Shown here: positions 1-22,032 of the stretch, one piece after another | Numbering within the stretch: the first letter of the stretch is position 1 | How the letters are laid out: each line of letters starts with the position of its first letter | Source of the DNA: a virus | Strand: one strand, 5' to 3' | DNA: 22,842 nucleotides | UHGV virus genome: UHGV-1660455 | Translations under genes and position numbers: made by a program | The notes under the pieces: generated by a model | Told to the model about the DNA's origin: nothing | Databases searched by the model: none | What the model saw: the letters and a program-made list of their open reading frames with translations, nothing else

Positions 1-72
1 CGGATGAATATGATGATCTCATATCAGGAACTTGTTCGCACCTTCCCTAACTGTGTTATAGACTACTAAATA

Positions 73-96
73 TTAACCCCTCAAAAGAGGGGTTAA
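73..96 (-). terminator. Perfect palindromic hairpin (TTAACCCCTC-AAAA-GAGGGGTTAA) immediately 3' of the J stop; putative intrinsic terminator ending the late tail operon
   Basis: 10-bp perfect inverted repeat with a 4-nt loop read directly from the sequence, flanked by A/T-rich sequence; sits 5 nt beyond the J stop codon at 101-103. Confidence 0.45.
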
Positions 97-100
97 TATT

Positions 101-3100
101 TTAACCTGTGAATGAACCAGATCCGTGTGATACTATGACAGTAGGCGAATAAATGGACGCGCCCCTGTTATTTTGAGCGGACACTTTAATACGTACTGTT
201 ACGTTTGGACCTGTTACAACAGCAGAATGCATAATAAGTCTCTCCACGTCTTGCACAGATGAACCACTCTCATTGCCGTTAATATTGATTAGTCCTGCAC
301 CATTACCTTTAACGTTTGCTATAACACAGACGTGTCTTGCGTGCCCAGAACTGGATGAATCCGTATAAGTTATTACCTTTTCTAAAAGGCCGTCACTAGA
401 CCGACTAACGTCAGTTCCGGTGTGCATATTTGCAATGTCCCCGATAAAACTTTGGGCTTCCACAGTCCCTTTGAATTTACCGCTTGTTGCTTGTATCTCA
501 CCAGTAAATCTACCGCCACTAGCATATACTACACCTCTGACGGTCACATTGTTGAATTCAGCATCTCCAGCTTTATTCAACTTCCAACCAGCAGAACCAG
601 CTGCATAGTTGTTGGACTGGATATAGTTGCCGATTTTTGCGTTCTCAATGGTGCCGTCCTGGATGAAGCTGGCCCGGATGAATGTCTGTCCATTCTGGAT
701 CACAAACGGCAAAGCCACGCTATTTCCGGCTGCCGTGGTGACGGCGAAGCGATCAGCCAGGAAGATAACCTGCGACTGCATGCCGGATGGCGTATTCTCC
801 ACGCCGATACCCATCCCCGCGGCGTAATACTGACCGTTGCTGGAAACGCCAACCTTGATGTTGTACATCGCGCTGAGGTCGCCATTAACGTTTGCTATCG
901 CCTGAGCGTTAGTGGTGATGGCGGAGGTATGCCCGTTCACGGTCGCCGTAATGCCGTTTATCTGCGTGGCCGTAGCCTGCTGATAGTCGGAGAACGTCTG
1001 ATTCAGGCTGTTTATGGATGCCTTGTTGCCGTTGACATCCGTCTGCAGGCTCAGCAGAGAACGCGCCGTTGCCTCCTTCTCGTTAACGATTACCTCATCA
1101 ATACGATCCAGCTGCGCACTGTTCCCTGCGACCGAAGCTGACAACGATTTACGCGTAGCCACTTGTGCCAGCCCGTTCTGGATAATTGCGATAGCAGAGT
1201 TCTTCACCCCGCCCGTCATGCCGTCCATAGACACGCTGATGCTGTCGATTCGCTGGCCCAGTGCGGTATCAGCAGTCGCAACAGTCTGCTCAAGATCTGA
1301 GAGAGAAGACGACACATCACCGACCGTGCTAGAAAGCTCATTAACGCTGGTCTGAACCTGCCCGATGTCCTGCGCGTTTTTTGCGATTTCCTGCGCCTGG
1401 AGTTCAAGTTCATCGTTGGCCTGTTTGATGTCGTCAGCCATGCCAGCAATTTTTTCATTGCTGTCCACAGCGTTCTCGATCAGGTCTTTGAACGTCTCAG
1501 ACCCTTTGATGTCTTCAAGGATCACATCTGTGATGTCAGAAACGTCGATACTGGCCTGCCCACGAACCCAGCCGGTATAACCTGACTCGTTACCGCTGCG
1601 GTCAACCAGCTGCGCGCGGTACCAGAAAATCTGCCCCGCTTTAAGGCCCATCTGCTGATATTTACGCTGTGGGTATGGCACATCAGCCAGCAACATCGCA
1701 TCGTCCTCAGTACCGGTCAGGCTGTACTGAATTTCCGTCTTCAGTGTATCGTCCGTATTGGCCGGGAACCCCCAGTTCAGCTCGATACCGAACACCACGT
1801 TTTCAGACGCGATGAAACCCACCGGCTTCGGCGGATTCCCGTCCTTGCCCGTCAGTGTTTTCTCTTCTGAATATCCCCATCCGGACGAAATTTCAGCGGC
1901 ATTGATGGCACGCACGCGAACCAGGTAGCGTCCCGCATAAATACCCGGAACATCGAACGATGTGGTGGAGCTGCGCGGCACATTGACCCAGTTCCCGTCA
2001 TTGCGGCGCCACTGTGCTTCATAGGCGATGGCGTTCTTCGCCTGGTCCCAGCTGACGCGCATGGTCTGAACGTTCACATTCTGCTGAACCACAGAGAATG
2101 AATTGATGACGATGTTGGCTGGCGGGGACTGATTACCTGGTGGAATAATACTTATTGGCCGCTGGTCGATAATGGCACCGGTATCGATACGCGCATATTT
2201 ATCCGGATCGTGCAAAGCGCCAGCAATCGAATACGTTCCGTCATTATTATCCGTAACGCTGATAACGCGATATTGCTGCGCGTAAAGCTCTTCAGACTCG
2301 ACAATCCACACCGATTCCACTGCAGGTGTTTCGCTGTATGCCGTTGTCACAGTGACGGCCCGCCCGTTTACGCTCTGTATCGTCCTGCTCTGCGATGCGC
2401 CGGACGGAAGGTTAACCATCAGACGGCTTCCGGGAGCGGCTGCCGAATCACGATCAAGCGTGATAACGCGACCGTTAACCGCGCTGATGCGCCCTCCCAT
2501 CACTTTTCCGGAAAGCAGCTCATCGGCAACCGCGATGATATAACCAGGCTGTGGGATCTTACCGTCAAGACCAACATCGAACGACACGATGCGATCCTTG
2601 TTATTGGTCAGGATACCCCAACGTCCTTTGCGGTTTGCCTCTGACTGCCGGGTACAACCAATGGCTGTCATTTCGAGCTGATTTGTGCCAAAGCGAGCAA
2701 CGAGATCCTGCTCAAATACAGGCTCCATCGCATCCGCGTAGGCATTACCAGGATCGGACCAGGAAACCAGTGCCGTGGTATAGCGGGTTTTGGTGGTGCT
2801 GCCCGAATAGGTAAAGCGCCCATTAACCACGTTTGCACGCGTGTAGCTGTAATCCACATCGCGGGGCATATCCGCCAGCGCAACGATTTGATCGCCACCC
2901 CAGTACGTCATGCCCCGGAATATCGCCGCAAAATCACGTAACACGGTATAGGCGTCATTCCTCTCCTGCACGTACACGTTACAGGTATAGCGAGGCTCAG
3001 TGCCGCTACCGCCTTTACCATCAGGAACCGGCTGATCGCAATATTGCGCGACCTGATAAAGCGTCCATTTATCAATATTGGCCGCCGTCAGGCGATTGCC

Positions 3101-3991
3101 CAGCCCAAAGCGGTCGCTCACCACCAGATCGTAAAAAATCCAGGCTGGATTATCCGTCCACGCCCACTTAAACGCCCCTGTCCATGTGCCGCTGTAGGTG
3201 CGGGTCTCCGGGTCATACGTATCCGGAACGCGGATTACACGCCCTCGCGGTTCGCAGGATATTTGCGGGATAGAGCCGTTAAACTGGCTTGAGTCGAATT
3301 CGATGTACAGCAGCGCGGTATTTGGATAACGCAGTTTGGCGTCAATAACCTCTGTGTAGCTCTGCAGCGTCATCGTGTCGCCAATTTTCGCGCTGTTGGC
3401 ATCCGCCGTAAGCTTACGCAGGCGCACCGTCCATGTACTGCCTGCCTGTGGTAAATCGATACGATGGCTGCGTTCGTAGCCGGAAGTTGTCTTGCCGGTT
3501 ACGCTGGTATTAAGTACCGTCTGCCAGGTGCCGCCATCGGTCTGCAGATCAATAGCGTAGTTAATTGAATAGCCAACCAGATCGCCATCATCCTCCTGTT
3601 TAAAAAGCGATGGCCACTTGAGGCGCAGGCGAACGGCTGACAGTTGCGTGTTGGTAAAGGTATGTGTCCAGCCGGTGGTGCTTGACACTTCGGTGCCCAC
3701 GCTGATTTCATTTTCTGTGCCGGGGACACCCTGAATATATTTTTGTGCCTGAGTCCCCGGACGAAATTCCCACGCCACGCCACTGAAGTTTTGCGATCCG
3801 TCTGCATTCTCCAGTGGCGTGCCATCGAGATAGATATCCTTCGCCGTCAACTGCCCTGCAAATTCGCCCTCTCCCAGTGCAACAAGAATTTTGGCTTTCG
3901 CTACGGACTGGAGATCGTCTGGTTGTTCAGTCGGGGTGCGTGAACTGGAGCTGCCGCCCTTGCGGCCTCTAATCGGAGTAGATGTAGCCAT
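101..3991 (-). CDS. J: Tail tip / host specificity protein J (central tail fibre), 1296 aa; mosaic with a non-lambda C-terminal region
   Basis: Uninterrupted 1296-aa ORF. N-terminal and central parts are recognisably like lambda J (fibronectin-III-like middle region), and it sits last in the conserved order ...M-L-K-I-J. Confidence 0.93.
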   Translation of the reverse strand: MATSTPIRGRKGGSSSSRTPTEQPDDLQSVAKAKILVALGEGEFAGQLTAKDIYLDGTPLENADGSQNFSGVAWEFRPGTQAQKYIQGVPGTENEISVGTEVSSTTGWTHTFTNTQLSAVRLRLKWPSLFKQEDDGDLVGYSINYAIDLQTDGGTWQTVLNTSVTGKTTSGYERSHRIDLPQAGSTWTVRLRKLTADANSAKIGDTMTLQSYTEVIDAKLRYPNTALLYIEFDSSQFNGSIPQISCEPRGRVIRVPDTYDPETRTYSGTWTGAFKWAWTDNPAWIFYDLVVSDRFGLGNRLTAANIDKWTLYQVAQYCDQPVPDGKGGSGTEPRYTCNVYVQERNDAYTVLRDFAAIFRGMTYWGGDQIVALADMPRDVDYSYTRANVVNGRFTYSGSTTKTRYTTALVSWSDPGNAYADAMEPVFEQDLVARFGTNQLEMTAIGCTRQSEANRKGRWGILTNNKDRIVSFDVGLDGKIPQPGYIIAVADELLSGKVMGGRISAVNGRVITLDRDSAAAPGSRLMVNLPSGASQSRTIQSVNGRAVTVTTAYSETPAVESVWIVESEELYAQQYRVISVTDNNDGTYSIAGALHDPDKYARIDTGAIIDQRPISIIPPGNQSPPANIVINSFSVVQQNVNVQTMRVSWDQAKNAIAYEAQWRRNDGNWVNVPRSSTTSFDVPGIYAGRYLVRVRAINAAEISSGWGYSEEKTLTGKDGNPPKPVGFIASENVVFGIELNWGFPANTDDTLKTEIQYSLTGTEDDAMLLADVPYPQRKYQQMGLKAGQIFWYRAQLVDRSGNESGYTGWVRGQASIDVSDITDVILEDIKGSETFKDLIENAVDSNEKIAGMADDIKQANDELELQAQEIAKNAQDIGQVQTSVNELSSTVGDVSSSLSDLEQTVATADTALGQRIDSISVSMDGMTGGVKNSAIAIIQNGLAQVATRKSLSASVAGNSAQLDRIDEVIVNEKEATARSLLSLQTDVNGNKASINSLNQTFSDYQQATATQINGITATVNGHTSAITTNAQAIANVNGDLSAMYNIKVGVSSNGQYYAAGMGIGVENTPSGMQSQVIFLADRFAVTTAAGNSVALPFVIQNGQTFIRASFIQDGTIENAKIGNYIQSNNYAAGSAGWKLNKAGDAEFNNVTVRGVVYASGGRFTGEIQATSGKFKGTVEAQSFIGDIANMHTGTDVSRSSDGLLEKVITYTDSSSSGHARHVCVIANVKGNGAGLININGNESGSSVQDVERLIMHSAVVTGPNVTVRIKVSAQNNRGASIYSPTVIVSHGSGSFTG

Positions 3992-4002
3992 ATTGCGCCC
4001 AT

Positions 4003-4026
4003 AAAAAAGGCCACCCTGAGGTGGCC
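4003..4026 (-). terminator. GC-rich hairpin (GGCCACC-CTGA-GGTGGCC) followed by a U6 run on the minus-strand transcript, between I and J; terminator-like or attenuator element
   Basis: 7-bp perfect stem at 4009-4015/4020-4026, preceded on the plus strand by AAAAAA (4003-4008), which is UUUUUU after the hairpin on the minus-strand RNA; lies in a 52-bp I-J spacer. Confidence 0.5.
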
Positions 4027-4043
4027 TGAAAGGAGGTTTTTAT

Positions 4044-4634
4044 TTATTGCTGGTCTTCGACATAAATCCCGGCAGAAATAATCGCACCGCCGATTTGCCG
4101 ACGACCATAAAGAAGCGGTACCGGATAGCCCTGCGCGGCGGTGTTGGTGACTCCACCGAACGCGTATGAGGCGCGGTTATCTGAACTCTGTTTGCTGGCC
4201 AGCCCCGCTGGTTGAGGGGAAAGCATCTGAACAACCCCGCCAATCATCATTGCGGCACCGAATTTGTATAAGAATGGTGATGCCGCAGCCCAGGGTGTGA
4301 AATTAAGCACCGCCCCAACGGCAACCAGAACTGCACCAAGTATTGTCTGGAGTAATCCGGCCTTTTTGCTCCCGATAATCACCGGGACAATGCGAATGAC
4401 ATCGCCGGTGACCGGGTAACCCAGGTCATCAACACCAATATTCTTTTTCCCTTTGAATACTGAATAAGTGAGACCACGGCGTTGGCTGGAAATCATAAAC
4501 TGCTCAAAGCCCGGTATAGTCTTTGCCAGCGCAACACTCGCTTCGTTCACGCGGGAAATCAGGCGATGGTGAACTTTACCGAATGTTTTCCCGAGCACGC
4601 CGCCAAGCTCAATGCGGGTCATTACTTCCTGCAT
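4044..4634 (-). CDS. I: Tail assembly protein I
   Basis: 196-aa ORF between K and J in lambda order; hydrophobic central segment. An alternative start at 4622 overlaps the K stop (TAATG). Confidence 0.85.
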   Translation of the reverse strand: MQEVMTRIELGGVLGKTFGKVHHRLISRVNEASVALAKTIPGFEQFMISSQRRGLTYSVFKGKKNIGVDDLGYPVTGDVIRIVPVIIGSKKAGLLQTILGAVLVAVGAVLNFTPWAAASPFLYKFGAAMMIGGVVQMLSPQPAGLASKQSSDNRASYAFGGVTNTAAQGYPVPLLYGRRQIGGAIISAGIYVEDQQ

Positions 4635-5392
4635 GTTTCACCTGCCATTACATCTTTATAGCGAACGATCTTCATTGTGCGCTCCTGCCAGTATCCGCCA
4701 TAAGGAACACGTTGACTCAGATGCCCGTAAAGATGGTGCAGCAGCATGTTACCCTCCAGTAAAATCCCGGCATGATTCCACTTATCGGCCTGCACCTGCA
4801 TGATGACGAGGTCCCCTTCCTGAGGCGGACCATCAAACTCCCTGAATCCGCACTCGTACCAGCACTCCTGATAGAAATTGTCCGGGTAGTCGTTTTCCCA
4901 CCAGGGATAATCCACCCGGTAATCGTGGAGCTCGATACAGTGGGTCTGCCGGAAATAGCTCATTACCAGACCCCAGCAATCGAAGTGGCCAAGCACGAAC
5001 GGACGCTCCAGCAATGGCAGCTCCCCGCGTGGCTGAATGGTACGTAAATCCCCCTCTGGCCAGCTCACAATATGCCAGGGCAGCAGCGTTGCATCACACT
5101 GCGCCTTATCCAGCTCGCTGGCCTGCGTCGTCGCATCAGGATGGCTGTGAACAATGGCCACCACCGTCCCCCAGTCTTCTGCCGCTGCGTAATCTTCGGG
5201 GGACAGGTGAAAATGTTCAGTCGGCTCTGCTGCGAGATTACGACAGGGAAAATAGCGCTCAACCCGGCTTTTCTGTGCCACCACGCCGCAGCACTCTCGC
5301 GGATATTCCGCTGCAGCGTGTGCCATGATGGCATCAATGGTTTTCTGGCGCATATCAGCTCCTGATAAGGGATGTACCGGGGAAACCGCCAA
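4622..5392 (-). CDS. K: Tail assembly protein K (JAB/MPN plus NlpC/P60-like fold); true start probably the internal Met at 5353
   Basis: ORF with the conserved ...AEYPRECCGVV... and HSHP motifs typical of lambda K; sits between L and I. The ATG at 5353 lies 1 nt after the L stop. Confidence 0.88.
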   Translation of the reverse strand: MAVSPVHPLSGADMRQKTIDAIMAHAAAEYPRECCGVVAQKSRVERYFPCRNLAAEPTEHFHLSPEDYAAAEDWGTVVAIVHSHPDATTQASELDKAQCDATLLPWHIVSWPEGDLRTIQPRGELPLLERPFVLGHFDCWGLVMSYFRQTHCIELHDYRVDYPWWENDYPDNFYQECWYECGFREFDGPPQEGDLVIMQVQADKWNHAGILLEGNMLLHHLYGHLSQRVPYGGYWQERTMKIVRYKDVMAGETCRK

Positions 5393-19511: not shown

Positions 19512-20186
19512 TCATCGACGGCACTGCTGCCAGATAACACCACCGGGGAGACATTCCATCATGATGGCCGTGCGGACATAGGAAGCCAGTTCATCCATCG
19601 CTTTCTTGTCTGCTGCCATTTGCTTTGCAACATCCAGATCCGCACATTCAGCAGTATTTTTCAGCGCGTTATCAAGCACCGCTTCGAGATTGGTATCAAC
19701 GCCAGAGTTAACTTCAAATTTGTCGGCGCTGATGGTTACCTTGTTCTGTACTGGCTCATCACGCAGGATACCAAGGCTGATGTTGTAGACTTTGGTCACC
19801 GACTGAGGCTTTTCTAATTCGGCGGCGCGGATAGAACCACCAGCGATATTGGCTTCCTTGATGAATACCTCACCGTTCTTCACAACAAATGGTGAGGTAT
19901 CAATCTCAACGCCAAGCGTCATCGAAGCGCAATATTGCTGCTTACCAAAACGCGTATTGACCAGGTGTTCAACGGCAAATTTCTGCCCTTCTGATGTCAG
20001 AAAGGTAAAGTGATTTTCTTTCTGGTATTCGGTTGCTGTATGTCTGGTTTCAGCAAAGCCAAACTCGCGCAATTCAGCGGCACCAGATTTAGACGGCAGG
20101 TCACCTGACAGCAACGCGCCACGGAAAAAGAGCGAATACAGAACATCCGTCGCCGCACCGGATAACGTAATGATTTTCTGACCCAT
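19512..20186 (-). CDS. Conserved lambdoid-phage protein of unknown function, encoded just upstream of cos
   Basis: 224-aa ORF with an AAAGGAAA ribosome-binding site. It resembles proteins found at the right end of lambdoid genomes, but my recollection of the exact family is uncertain. Confidence 0.6.
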   Translation of the reverse strand: MGQKIITLSGAATDVLYSLFFRGALLSGDLPSKSGAAELREFGFAETRHTATEYQKENHFTFLTSEGQKFAVEHLVNTRFGKQQYCASMTLGVEIDTSPFVVKNGEVFIKEANIAGGSIRAAELEKPQSVTKVYNISLGILRDEPVQNKVTISADKFEVNSGVDTNLEAVLDNALKNTAECADLDVAKQMAADKKAMDELASYVRTAIMMECLPGGVIWQQCRR

Positions 20187-20446: not shown

Positions 20447-20911
20447 ATGATCACCAAAGTAAAAATCAAGTTTATTTCCCCTATTGATGGATCGGTATCA
20501 GATACCCCCACGGAGCATGCAATTCCCGTAGTTCCATTGACAGTATGGCCAAGTAGCTCAAAAGATATAAACGTTTATAAACCAAATGGATTGAAGGCTG
20601 GTGCCTACGCACTTATAGATACCGGAGCAGATCTTTGCTATGTGGATTCAGACTTTGCTGACGATTTAAAACTCCCAATCGCGGAAAAAACAACTGTGAG
20701 CGGAGCCACCTCAACAATAGAAACTACAGTTCGGCATGCGGTAATATCGTTCACTGAGGACGAAAGAGTTTTTTCAACAGAATTGACTTCAGTGCCATTG
20801 GTAAGTAACGGGAGAAAATTCCAAGTCGTTTTCGGAATGCAACTAATTAAAATGGGCGCCCTTACGATGGATTTTTCCAATCAAGTATTTGAGTTAACAT
20901 TTTTTAACTAA
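20447..20911 (+). CDS. Retropepsin-like (clan AA) aspartic protease, 154 aa; AT-rich moron gene on the strand opposite the late operon
   Basis: ORF with a good Shine-Dalgarno (AAGGAAAAAGG-ATG) and the canonical aspartic-protease signature hydrophobic-hydrophobic-D-T-G-A (..YALIDTGADLCYVD..). Markedly lower GC than the flanking phage genes. Confidence 0.75.
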   Translation: MITKVKIKFISPIDGSVSDTPTEHAIPVVPLTVWPSSSKDINVYKPNGLKAGAYALIDTGADLCYVDSDFADDLKLPIAEKTTVSGATSTIETTVRHAVISFTEDERVFSTELTSVPLVSNGRKFQVVFGMQLIKMGALTMDFSNQVFELTFFN

Positions 20912-21176: not shown

Positions 21177-21194
21177 AACCACAGATTTGTGGTT
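21177..21194 (-). terminator. Weak hairpin (AACCACA-GATT-TGTGGTT) with a U-run on the minus-strand RNA, at the 3' end of the Rha-like gene
   Basis: 7-bp inverted repeat overlapping the stop codon by 2 nt; followed on the minus-strand RNA by UUUUGAG. Confidence 0.35.
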
Positions 21195-21879
21195 ATGCGG
21201 CCAAGCGGTGCTGCTCTTCGATAAGTGGCTGGCGGTGATTACGCTCGAACATGCCGCGCAGCACTTCTTTGCGTTGTTCGAAGTCCCACCCCATGCTGAT
21301 GAATACCGTGTTGGCGCGCTGTAGCTCGGTGATGCAGTGAATTTGTTCCGGCGTCAGGTAATCGCGGATCGGCTCTTTCTTCCCGATTTCGTGATGCACG
21401 CGGAACTTGGCCGCCGTCATGCCCAGCGCCAGTCGGTTAATCAGGTCAGCTTCGTTGCTGAAGTGATGCGGGGCGATCTGCTTACCCTGCGCCTCACGCT
21501 CATGCTTGATGGCATCGGTCATAGGCTTGTACTCCAGACGCGCCGAGTTGCGATCCATCTTCTTCTTCGCCAGCGCGCTGCGCATAGTGAAGAATTCATA
21601 TACCAAGCGCTTTTTGAATTCACGCACAACTTCATTGTTTCGCATGTAGGTGATCAACAGCGTGGTTTGCTGTTCGTTTAGCAGTGCTATTTCCTGCTTC
21701 TGCATGCCCCCATCCGTTTGAAAGGGTCGCATTTCAAATTCCACCCTTCCGAATTCTTCGAGGTCGCTTTTGTACTTCCTGATGAGTTGAATCACTGGCT
21801 TGTGATCCTTCATAACACCACTGGCGATCACTGCCGAGTTGGTGACCAGGTCTAGCTTCTTGATTTCTACTAATTGCAT
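21193..21879 (-). CDS. rha: Phage regulatory protein of the Rha family (antirepressor-like)
   Basis: The N-terminus ..LVTNSAVIASGVMKDHKPVIQLIRK.. fits the Rha-domain pattern (T.SS..IA...GK.H..V.R.IR). The tracked ORF runs to 21963, but the Met at 21879 has a plausible ribosome-binding site and begins the conserved domain. Confidence 0.7.
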   Translation of the reverse strand: MQLVEIKKLDLVTNSAVIASGVMKDHKPVIQLIRKYKSDLEEFGRVEFEMRPFQTDGGMQKQEIALLNEQQTTLLITYMRNNEVVREFKKRLVYEFFTMRSALAKKKMDRNSARLEYKPMTDAIKHEREAQGKQIAPHHFSNEADLINRLALGMTAAKFRVHHEIGKKEPIRDYLTPEQIHCITELQRANTVFISMGWDFEQRKEVLRGMFERNHRQPLIEEQHRLAA

Positions 21880-22032
21880 GGCGTGTACCTTTCTTTGAGA
21901 TGAACCTTTGCCGCACAGGAAATCAGCCCGTCGAGGCTCGCCAGCACTAACTGACTTCCTCAAAGGCTCATTTCAAAGGGTATGGTTCGACGTGGGTTGA
22001 ATGCGCTGCGGTGCGCGGTGAAATTCTGGCAT

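Follow-up and report, generated by a model that had tools for sequence, protein, structure and literature searches.

An intact HK97-type J gene closes the structural gene block

We analysed the gene for J, the central tail fibre and tail tip protein, in the virus genome UHGV-1660455, a stretch of 22,842 nucleotides (nt) that is called the window below. The list of open reading frames (ORFs) and their translations places the gene on the minus strand at 101..3991, with an ATG start, a stop codon at 101-103 and a product of 1296 amino acids (aa). The initial annotation of this DNA had already given this length correctly, next to the 1132 aa of lambda J. HK97 gp24 (NP_037717), also of 1296 aa, is 93.6% identical to the product over 1296/1296 aa with 0 gaps. 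Pfam profiles matched FNIII-A_GpJ at aa 92-218 (E 9e-51), Phage-tail_3 at aa 343-505 (E 1e-13) and Phage_Tail_Tip (PF09327, DUF1983) at aa 1024-1161 (E 4e-49), and phmmer aligned aa 13-698 with the lambda J structure 8iyk (E 3e-129). The hub, FNIII and tail-tip fibre domains of the TipJ/lambda gpJ family were thus all found, in a gene at the end of the tail block. The colinearity with HK97 along the whole length, shaft and tip included, is that of an HK97-type (long-shaft) J. The gene and its parts are as follows.

101..3991, minus strand: J, central tail fibre / tail tip protein (ORF, HK97 gp24 identity, Pfam and gene context).
1562..3991, minus strand: aa 1-810, hub and FNIII domains closing the tail tip (Pfam; about 33% identity to lambda J).
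872..1561, minus strand: aa 811-1040, alpha-helical shaft (composition, 3.5-residue periodicity and alignment with the F2-pyocin fibre 25vf).
572..871, minus strand: aa 1041-1140, core of the beta-prism 'central straight fibre' (PF09327; aligns with lambda J 860-997).
431..571, minus strand: aa 1141-1187, first part of the exchanged module, where short repeats (VRGVVYASGGRFTGEIQATSGKFKGTVEAQSF) precede the tip domain (the similarity of relatives ends at nt 571).
104..430, minus strand: aa 1188-1296, C-terminal receptor-binding domain (RBD), a beta-sandwich that would bind LamB (AlphaFold2, Foldseek and identities).

From these data we infer the domain order hub and FNIII (1-810), coiled-coil shaft (about 811-1040), beta-prism or beta-helix fibre (about 1041-1187) and beta-sandwich RBD (1188-1296). 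In such a protein, J would form the trimeric central tail fibre and tip, and its hub and FNIII domains would seal the tail tube.

The neighbourhood fits this assignment. Upstream of J lie a gpK-like ORF with Prok-JAB and NlpC/P60 domains (4622-5392) and a gpI-like ORF (4044-4634), for which no Pfam match was found and which is annotated as 'tail assembly protein' in relatives. The gene order around J is the same as in mEp237. The structural gene block that ends with J spans 17.8 kb; its identity to mEp237 is 98.5%, and it is also related to HK225, N15 and phi80. Judged by this context and by its colinearity with gp24, the gene is an intact HK97-type J of a lambdoid siphophage or prophage, with a structural block of the mEp237/N15/phi80 type.

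We also considered whether J is a decaying remnant in a defective prophage, its odd C-terminus and low content of guanine plus cytosine (GC) having arisen by degradation or by a rearrangement associated with an insertion sequence (IS). An IS5-family element does lie 55 nt past the J stop, where it truncates the neighbouring lipoprotein gene, and many database relatives of J are partial proteins. However, the IS lies outside J, beyond the terminator hairpin of the gene, and the ORF has its full length and runs colinearly with J of the functional phage HK97, uninterrupted by gaps or stop codons. The viable phages HK97 and 9g have the low-GC module at 93% protein identity, and the upstream 17.8 kb show the close identity to viable mEp237 given above. 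A remnant is therefore very unlikely.

HK97 J, and not lambda J, is the fitting reference

BLASTP aligned aa 13-861 with lambda J 4-858 at 31.7% identity and aa 1040-1186 with lambda J 860-997 at 27.7% identity; aa 1141-1187 were also aligned with lambda J by hhalign. No lambda J counterpart was found by BLASTP for aa 862-1039 (about 178 residues), nor was a match in lambda J found for the last approximately 110 aa, beyond aa 1186. Uniform similarity to lambda J, which the mosaic structure proposed in the initial annotation does not allow for, was looked for in this comparison and was not seen: the gaps are at aa 862-1039 and at the tip. The N-terminal two-thirds had been described as lambda-like. 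This is right with respect to homology and shared domain order, but the two proteins are not closely similar; because identity is only about 32% and the Pfam order matches, 'lambda-like' here means homologous with the same order of domains.

A segment at about aa 800-1000 had likewise been noted as not recognisable from lambda J, in agreement with the unmatched aa 862-1039, which belong to a helical shaft with a 3.5-residue periodicity. The further suggestion that the protein is a lambda J mosaic with a coiled-coil insertion does not hold, since the whole protein is of the HK97 lineage and lambda J has a short shaft itself. The alpha-helical shaft of lambda J comprises residues 809-861 (PMC11101478), and the approximately 178 extra residues are therefore a length difference in a shared element and not a foreign insert. 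As judged by these alignments, lambda J was the wrong yardstick for this protein, and HK97 J is the fitting one.

The last 156 residues form an exchanged module

The 3' end of the gene had been described as AT-rich, and it is: GC is 0.437 at nt 101-571 and 0.544 at nt 572-3991, with a value of 0.436 for nt 104..430 (aa 1188-1296). Of all 471-nt windows in the 22.8 kb, only 3% were this low in GC, all of them here or at 18.9-20.6 kb. GC at third codon positions (GC3) is 0.327 in the last 156 codons and 0.58-0.69 in the other four segments of the gene, whereas codon positions 1 and 2 keep the same GC (0.50). Amino-acid composition was therefore rejected as the cause of the low GC, since the drop is in GC3 (0.33) and leaves positions 1 and 2 as they are.

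The step in composition coincides with a break in similarity. In HK022, HK75, HK633, mEp235, mEpX1 and others (more than 15 phages), all similarity stops at nt 571, which corresponds to aa 1140/1141, and the similarity of mEp237 ends at nt 571, too. At the same position, identity switches from HK022 (100%) to HK97 and 9g. Because the composition step and the similarity break are both at nt 571, the module comprises 156 aa and not the divergent last 170 or so residues proposed previously, although the tip is indeed unlike that of lambda. The proposal that the C-terminus is an exchanged receptor-binding module is supported by the sharp break at nt 571, the switch in codon identity there, and a distinct GC matching that of 9g.

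A homologue search with the 156-aa tip returned 12 proteins, mostly fragments, which permitted a thin alignment and not a survey; the survey was therefore made by tblastn against phage records. The module was 92.9% identical in both HK97 and 9g, 80.6% in KurtStettler, 68.5% in mEp010, 59.6% in mEp044, 58.9% in mEp013 and 58.2% in mEp554, with more distant relatives at about 35% in Seurat, CAjan and WildeMaa. Within the module, the protein identity of aa 1141-1187 is 100% to 9g and 98% to HK97, and that of aa 1188-1296 is 91% to HK97 and 90% to 9g.

In 9g, the J gene is uniform in GC (module 0.442, remainder 0.443). HK97 J, in contrast, shows the same step as the gene studied here (0.444 in the module versus 0.556). 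Uniform GC in 9g and a step in both HK97 and this gene would therefore place the origin of the cassette in a low-GC virulent siphophage background, from which it moved into a lambdoid J. Together, these comparisons suggest that temperate lambdoid phages acquired the module from a virulent, Queuovirinae-like background.

The module is linked to a probable terminator hairpin and a lipoprotein gene of an exclusion family

The match to 9g, KurtStettler and CSP1 does not stop with J. It runs past the J stop to nt 39-49 and thus comprises a hairpin and the end of a convergent lipoprotein gene. Three features lie in this short region.

69..100, unstranded: perfect hairpin AATATTAACCCCTC-TTTT-GAGGGGTTAATATT with a 14-bp stem, read from the sequence.
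47..69, plus strand: end of a 78-aa convergent lipoprotein gene, (..S)NCVIDY followed by the stop codon, truncated by the IS and read from the sequence.
1..46, unstranded: terminal 46 nt of an IS5-family (ISKpn26-like) element, followed by the CTAA target site at 47-50.

The hairpin lies between the convergent J and lipoprotein genes and probably terminates transcription in both directions. It is kept together with the exchanged module, being the 'H1 loop' in 9g and the predicted terminator T18 in mEp010. An intact lipoprotein gene is present in E. coli QL57EC and in 9g (gp69), and both end in ..SPSNCVIDY before the stop. A homologue of the lipoprotein is mEp010 gp116 (Lpp010), which excludes phages that depend on LamB, including lambda. 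In the window, the IS cuts this gene six codons before its stop, and the exclusion gene of the prophage may therefore be damaged.

The identity of the IS was read from its junction: nt 1-60 recur with 100% identity in E. coli EC2001, where the junction adjoins an annotated ISKpn26 transposase gene. The IS end sequence is present in 1821/5426 complete E. coli genomes, in up to 43 places per genome.

In most carriers, then, the module travels with the terminator hairpin and the convergent gene of a cognate exclusion lipoprotein, and module and exclusion gene pass together between virulent Queuovirinae and temperate lambdoid phages.

The tip most likely binds LamB

AlphaFold2 modelled aa 1188-1296 as all beta, with block means of the predicted local distance difference test (pLDDT) of 78-96 and 78 residues at or above 90. 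When the tip model was compared with the PDB by Foldseek, the four top matches were lambda-type gpJ fibres, including the gpJ-LamB complex 8xcj (E 2e-5 to 9e-5). The alignment of the tip with lambda J by hhalign (97.9% probability) reaches aa 1224 or so, corresponding to about residue 1037 of lambda, and thus comprises only the first strands of the lambda RBD. The tip is confidently predicted to be a compact domain at the position of the RBD in lambda.

Several phages with the same tip have been characterised. HK97 adsorbs to LamB (PMC6832061, citing Dhillon 1980 and Cumby 2015; bioRxiv 10.1101/2025.12.01.691526), LamB is the receptor of KurtStettler (Bas22), as confirmed by complementation (PMC8594841), and mEp010, mEp013, mEp044 and mEp554 are LamB-dependent (PMC11893012). 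The tip is thus homologous, at 58-93% identity, to those of six LamB-dependent phages, as is expected of a LamB-specific GpJ tip of non-lambda type. In addition, we counted the linked lipoprotein gene as support for a LamB tip, because its family includes an excluder of LamB-dependent phages. With this evidence, the tip very probably binds the maltoporin LamB directly, as in HK97. The initial annotation had predicted a receptor other than LamB; the conclusion from 'not lambda-like' to 'not LamB' is contradicted by the six characterised carriers of this tip, all of which depend on LamB.

Two observations weigh against the overall reading of an intact HK97-type J with a LamB tip. The adjacent IS element marks a disturbed prophage region, and 11/156 tip positions differ from HK97, namely R1161S, D1194N, D1200N, K1228R, L1234T, N1240S, S1242G, G1243S, K1269T, Y1281S and V1285I. 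A handful of substitutions in the lambda J tip can reportedly add a new receptor (Meyer 2012). Our remaining doubt about LamB stems in part from the 11 substitutions.

These substitutions would also fit a different reading, in which the non-lambda module directs the phage to another outer-membrane receptor, such as FhuA, OmpC, LptD or BtuB. The module is clearly exchanged, its last approximately 110 aa show no similarity to the tip of lambda J by BLAST, and its relatives at about 35% identity (Seurat, CAjan and WildeMaa) come from genera using other receptors such as LptD and FhuA. However, all experimentally characterised carriers with at least 58% module identity are LamB-dependent, and the linked lipoprotein is from a family that excludes LamB-dependent phages. 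The receptor of HK022 is FhuA, and the FhuA-type relatives HK022 and mEp237 are arranged otherwise: their J is shorter (1183 and 1151 aa), and behind it come cor and small extra genes. A non-LamB receptor is thus improbable.

Direct binding of LamB was also weighed against a mere docking function of the tip, which would then hold a separate receptor-binding protein and make no receptor contact of its own, as proposed for Drexlerviridae and for PyoF11/F12 of F-pyocins. Many J-like systems indeed encode dedicated receptor-binding proteins just downstream of J (PMC8594841; a preprint; F7 pyocin). Here, as in 9g, mEp010 and QL57EC, only the small convergent lipoprotein gene lies between J and the side-fibre genes, and in HK97 stf directly follows J. 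Moreover, published comparative genomics puts LamB specificity in the distal domain of GpJ itself, and the tip is a compact, confidently predicted domain where the RBD of lambda sits. We regard a docking function as having very little chance of being correct, and retain the tip as a probable LamB binder in its own right.

For genome scans, this calls for caution: a J tip unlike that of lambda does not imply a different receptor, and at least two sequence-unrelated classes of J tips are associated with LamB.

The gene is a mosaic within the HK97-type lineage

Codon-based nucleotide comparison with the J genes of known phages showed that identity changes along the gene.

Codons 1-600 (nt 2192-3991): mEp237 99-100%, HK97 and HK022 about 80%.
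Codons 601-800: transition zone with intermediate nucleotide identity.
Codons 801-920: HK97 and HK022 both about 100%.
Codons 921-1080: HK022 97-100%, HK97 85-95%.
Codons 1121-1200: HK97 97-100%.
Codons 1201-1296: 9g 89-93%, HK97 77-90%.

The nucleotide identity to HK022 is 97-100% over codons 801-1080, and the protein sequence of aa 811-1040 is identical to that of HK022. As read from these blocks, the gene is put together by homologous recombination among J genes of the HK97-type lineage. An identical J mosaic was sought in complete E. coli genomes and none was found; the best match was 96.2% over 94% of the query, in strain MSB1_9D.

The shaft carries a motif of fold-switching fibres

The shaft (aa 811-1040) is rich in A (12%), S (11%), I (9%), D (9%), T (8%), Q (8%) and N (8%), and Pro, Phe, Trp and Tyr together make up 1.3% of it versus 14.7% of aa 1-810. 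Hydrophobic residues recur in it with a main period of 3.5 residues, and of 11/3 around aa 883-950. The best sequence match of J in the PDB by phmmer was the F2-pyocin fibre 25vf (1051 bits, aa 6-1143), and the shaft segment alone aligned with 25vf residues 906-1185. The homologous region of F2 pyocin was described in 2026 as a coiled coil of three strands, with side fibres anchored at a Gly-containing kink (PMC13455828). According to the alignments, the long shaft is a regular feature of the HK97-type lineage, being present in HK97 and HK022.

In F7 pyocin, a coiled coil changes to a beta-prism, and the motif SxSxxMxxLxS marks the switching strands; the same fold switch has been predicted for lambdoid fibres such as those of HK639 and mEp390 (PMC12874032). 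That report covers 24 phage fibres, and its main text names only HK639 and mEp390 (PMC12874032). In the J studied here, nine matches to the motif were found in aa 855-1045, versus 2.1 +/- 1.4 in shuffled sequences, and 0/2000 composition-preserving shuffles reached nine. Motif density was 4.7 per 100 aa in this region versus 0.45 elsewhere in J, a tenfold difference. Five of the matches, at aa 942-1006, alternate in orientation (f/r) and are spaced by 15-17 residues.

We modelled the shaft with AlphaFold2 as a monomer, using a 66-sequence alignment. The model has a helix at aa 818-906, followed by a beta-meander at aa 910-1064 with a 16-residue period and block-mean pLDDT of up to 84. The motif matches at aa 909, 942, 959, 974, 991 and 1006 each lie within one predicted strand, and those at 942-1006 occupy five consecutive predicted strands. 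Deep alignments are reported to give beta-prism predictions, and the predicted beta-meander fits this published behaviour. We infer a helical state of aa 910-1040 only from the periodicity and from the solved pyocin shaft.

Taken together, these data raise the possibility that about 155 residues of the shaft (aa 885-1040 or so) form a metastable coiled coil that refolds to a beta-prism upon LamB binding, a tentative proposal to which we give slightly less than an even chance. Refolding of the shaft would supply force, open the tail tip and release the tape-measure protein. On the other side, the shaft model is that of a monomer with a mean pLDDT of only 59.7, and its comparison with the PDB by Foldseek gave no significant match (best E 0.03). 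No post-ejection structure of F7 pyocin was among the Foldseek matches; comparability may be limited here, as the model is one chain and the prism is built of three. Furthermore, the authors of the F7-pyocin study describe lambda and T5 as being without an extensive fold switch, and the switch has been demonstrated in the pyocin only.

If the proposal is true, HK97-type J would be a phage example of the F7-pyocin fold switch that is testable by genetics, in a system where LamB is known as the receptor in the outer membrane and, for HK97, PtsG and FkpA are known as factors of the inner membrane and periplasm. HK97-type J genes would then be convenient for testing such a switch.

Two further observations were made in the shaft. 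A Gly-rich break, DGMTGG, lies in its middle (aa 923-928, nt 1208-1225 approximately). By analogy with the Gly kink of F2 pyocin (PMC13455828), it could be a side-fibre attachment site; the side-fibre genes are outside the window. Secondly, the J gene of E. coli EC2001 beside the same IS junction is 94.5% identical and contains four tandem 288-bp units, corresponding to J aa 915-1013. The repeat lies at 3451-4598 of its stretch and corresponds to 951-1246 of the window. The EC2001 shaft is longer by 96-aa steps, giving a protein of about 1638 aa. As judged by this pair, shafts seem to differ in length by whole numbers of strand repeats. Although it has exactly the same IS junction, EC2001 was rejected as the source of the window, given the lower identity and the fourfold repeat of its J.

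Other genes of the window

An ORF of 224 aa (19512-20186, minus strand) lies in a low-GC stretch, with the lysis region on one side and cos/Nu1 on the other. It matches PF09327 in the manner of a fragment (E 1.7e-7, over positions 70-115 of the profile), is weakly similar to aa 1021-1120 of J, and shares 77% identity with a hypothetical protein encoded at the phi80 right end. Further to the right are genes with a retropepsin-like aspartyl protease domain (20447-20911, plus strand), for a Rha-family regulator (21193-21963, minus strand) and for a phage lysozyme (22531-22830, minus strand). The right-hand genes fit a late and lysis region in a prophage, upstream of cos.

Comparison with known systems

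Published phages already offer counterparts of the protein, of its module structure and of its likely receptor; this is known and not new biology. One of the systems compared is the F-pyocin central fibre (F2, 25vf; F7, PMC12874032). It shares the long three-stranded alpha-helical shaft, and the SxSxxMxxLxS motif known from it is enriched here. In contrast to J, the pyocin fibre is from Pseudomonas, ends without a covalent LamB-type tip, uses separate PyoF11/F12 proteins, and is the only one of the two in which a fold switch has been shown.

Lambda gpJ (1132 aa; 8iyk, 8xcj and 8xck) has the same succession of hub, FNIII domains, alpha-helical shaft, beta-prism fibre and C-terminal RBD (PMC11101478), and probably shares the receptor LamB with the J studied here. 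It differs in its sequence (about 32% identity), in its shaft of about 53 residues versus about 230 here, and in its tip, which is unalignable past the first strands.

The J proteins of HK022 and mEp237 belong to the same lineage and are 100% (HK022) and 99% (mEp237) identical at the protein level over large blocks. Unlike the J studied here, they are shorter (1183 and 1151 aa) and lack the 156-aa tip, and their genes are followed by small extra genes and the Cor exclusion gene.

The LamB tips of Queuovirinae and mEpimmI phages (9g, KurtStettler/Bas22, Dru_SM1 and mEp010/013/044/554) carry the homologous 156-aa module at 58-93% identity, with the same hairpin and then the convergent lipoprotein gene, and the GC of the module is like that of the 9g genome. 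Lifestyles differ, and the J bodies are unrelated or very distant (9g J, 14-18% over aa 1-1040).

Among the closest known systems is HK97 gp24. It differs at the DNA level over codons 1-600, where its identity is only about 80% and that of mEp237 is about 100%, over codons 921-1080, which are nearer to HK022, and behind J, where HK97 has stf directly and lacks the convergent lipoprotein gene. HK97 J has the same length, is colinear at 93.6% identity, and has the same shaft, a C-terminal module of 92.9% identity with the same drop in GC, and adsorption to LamB.

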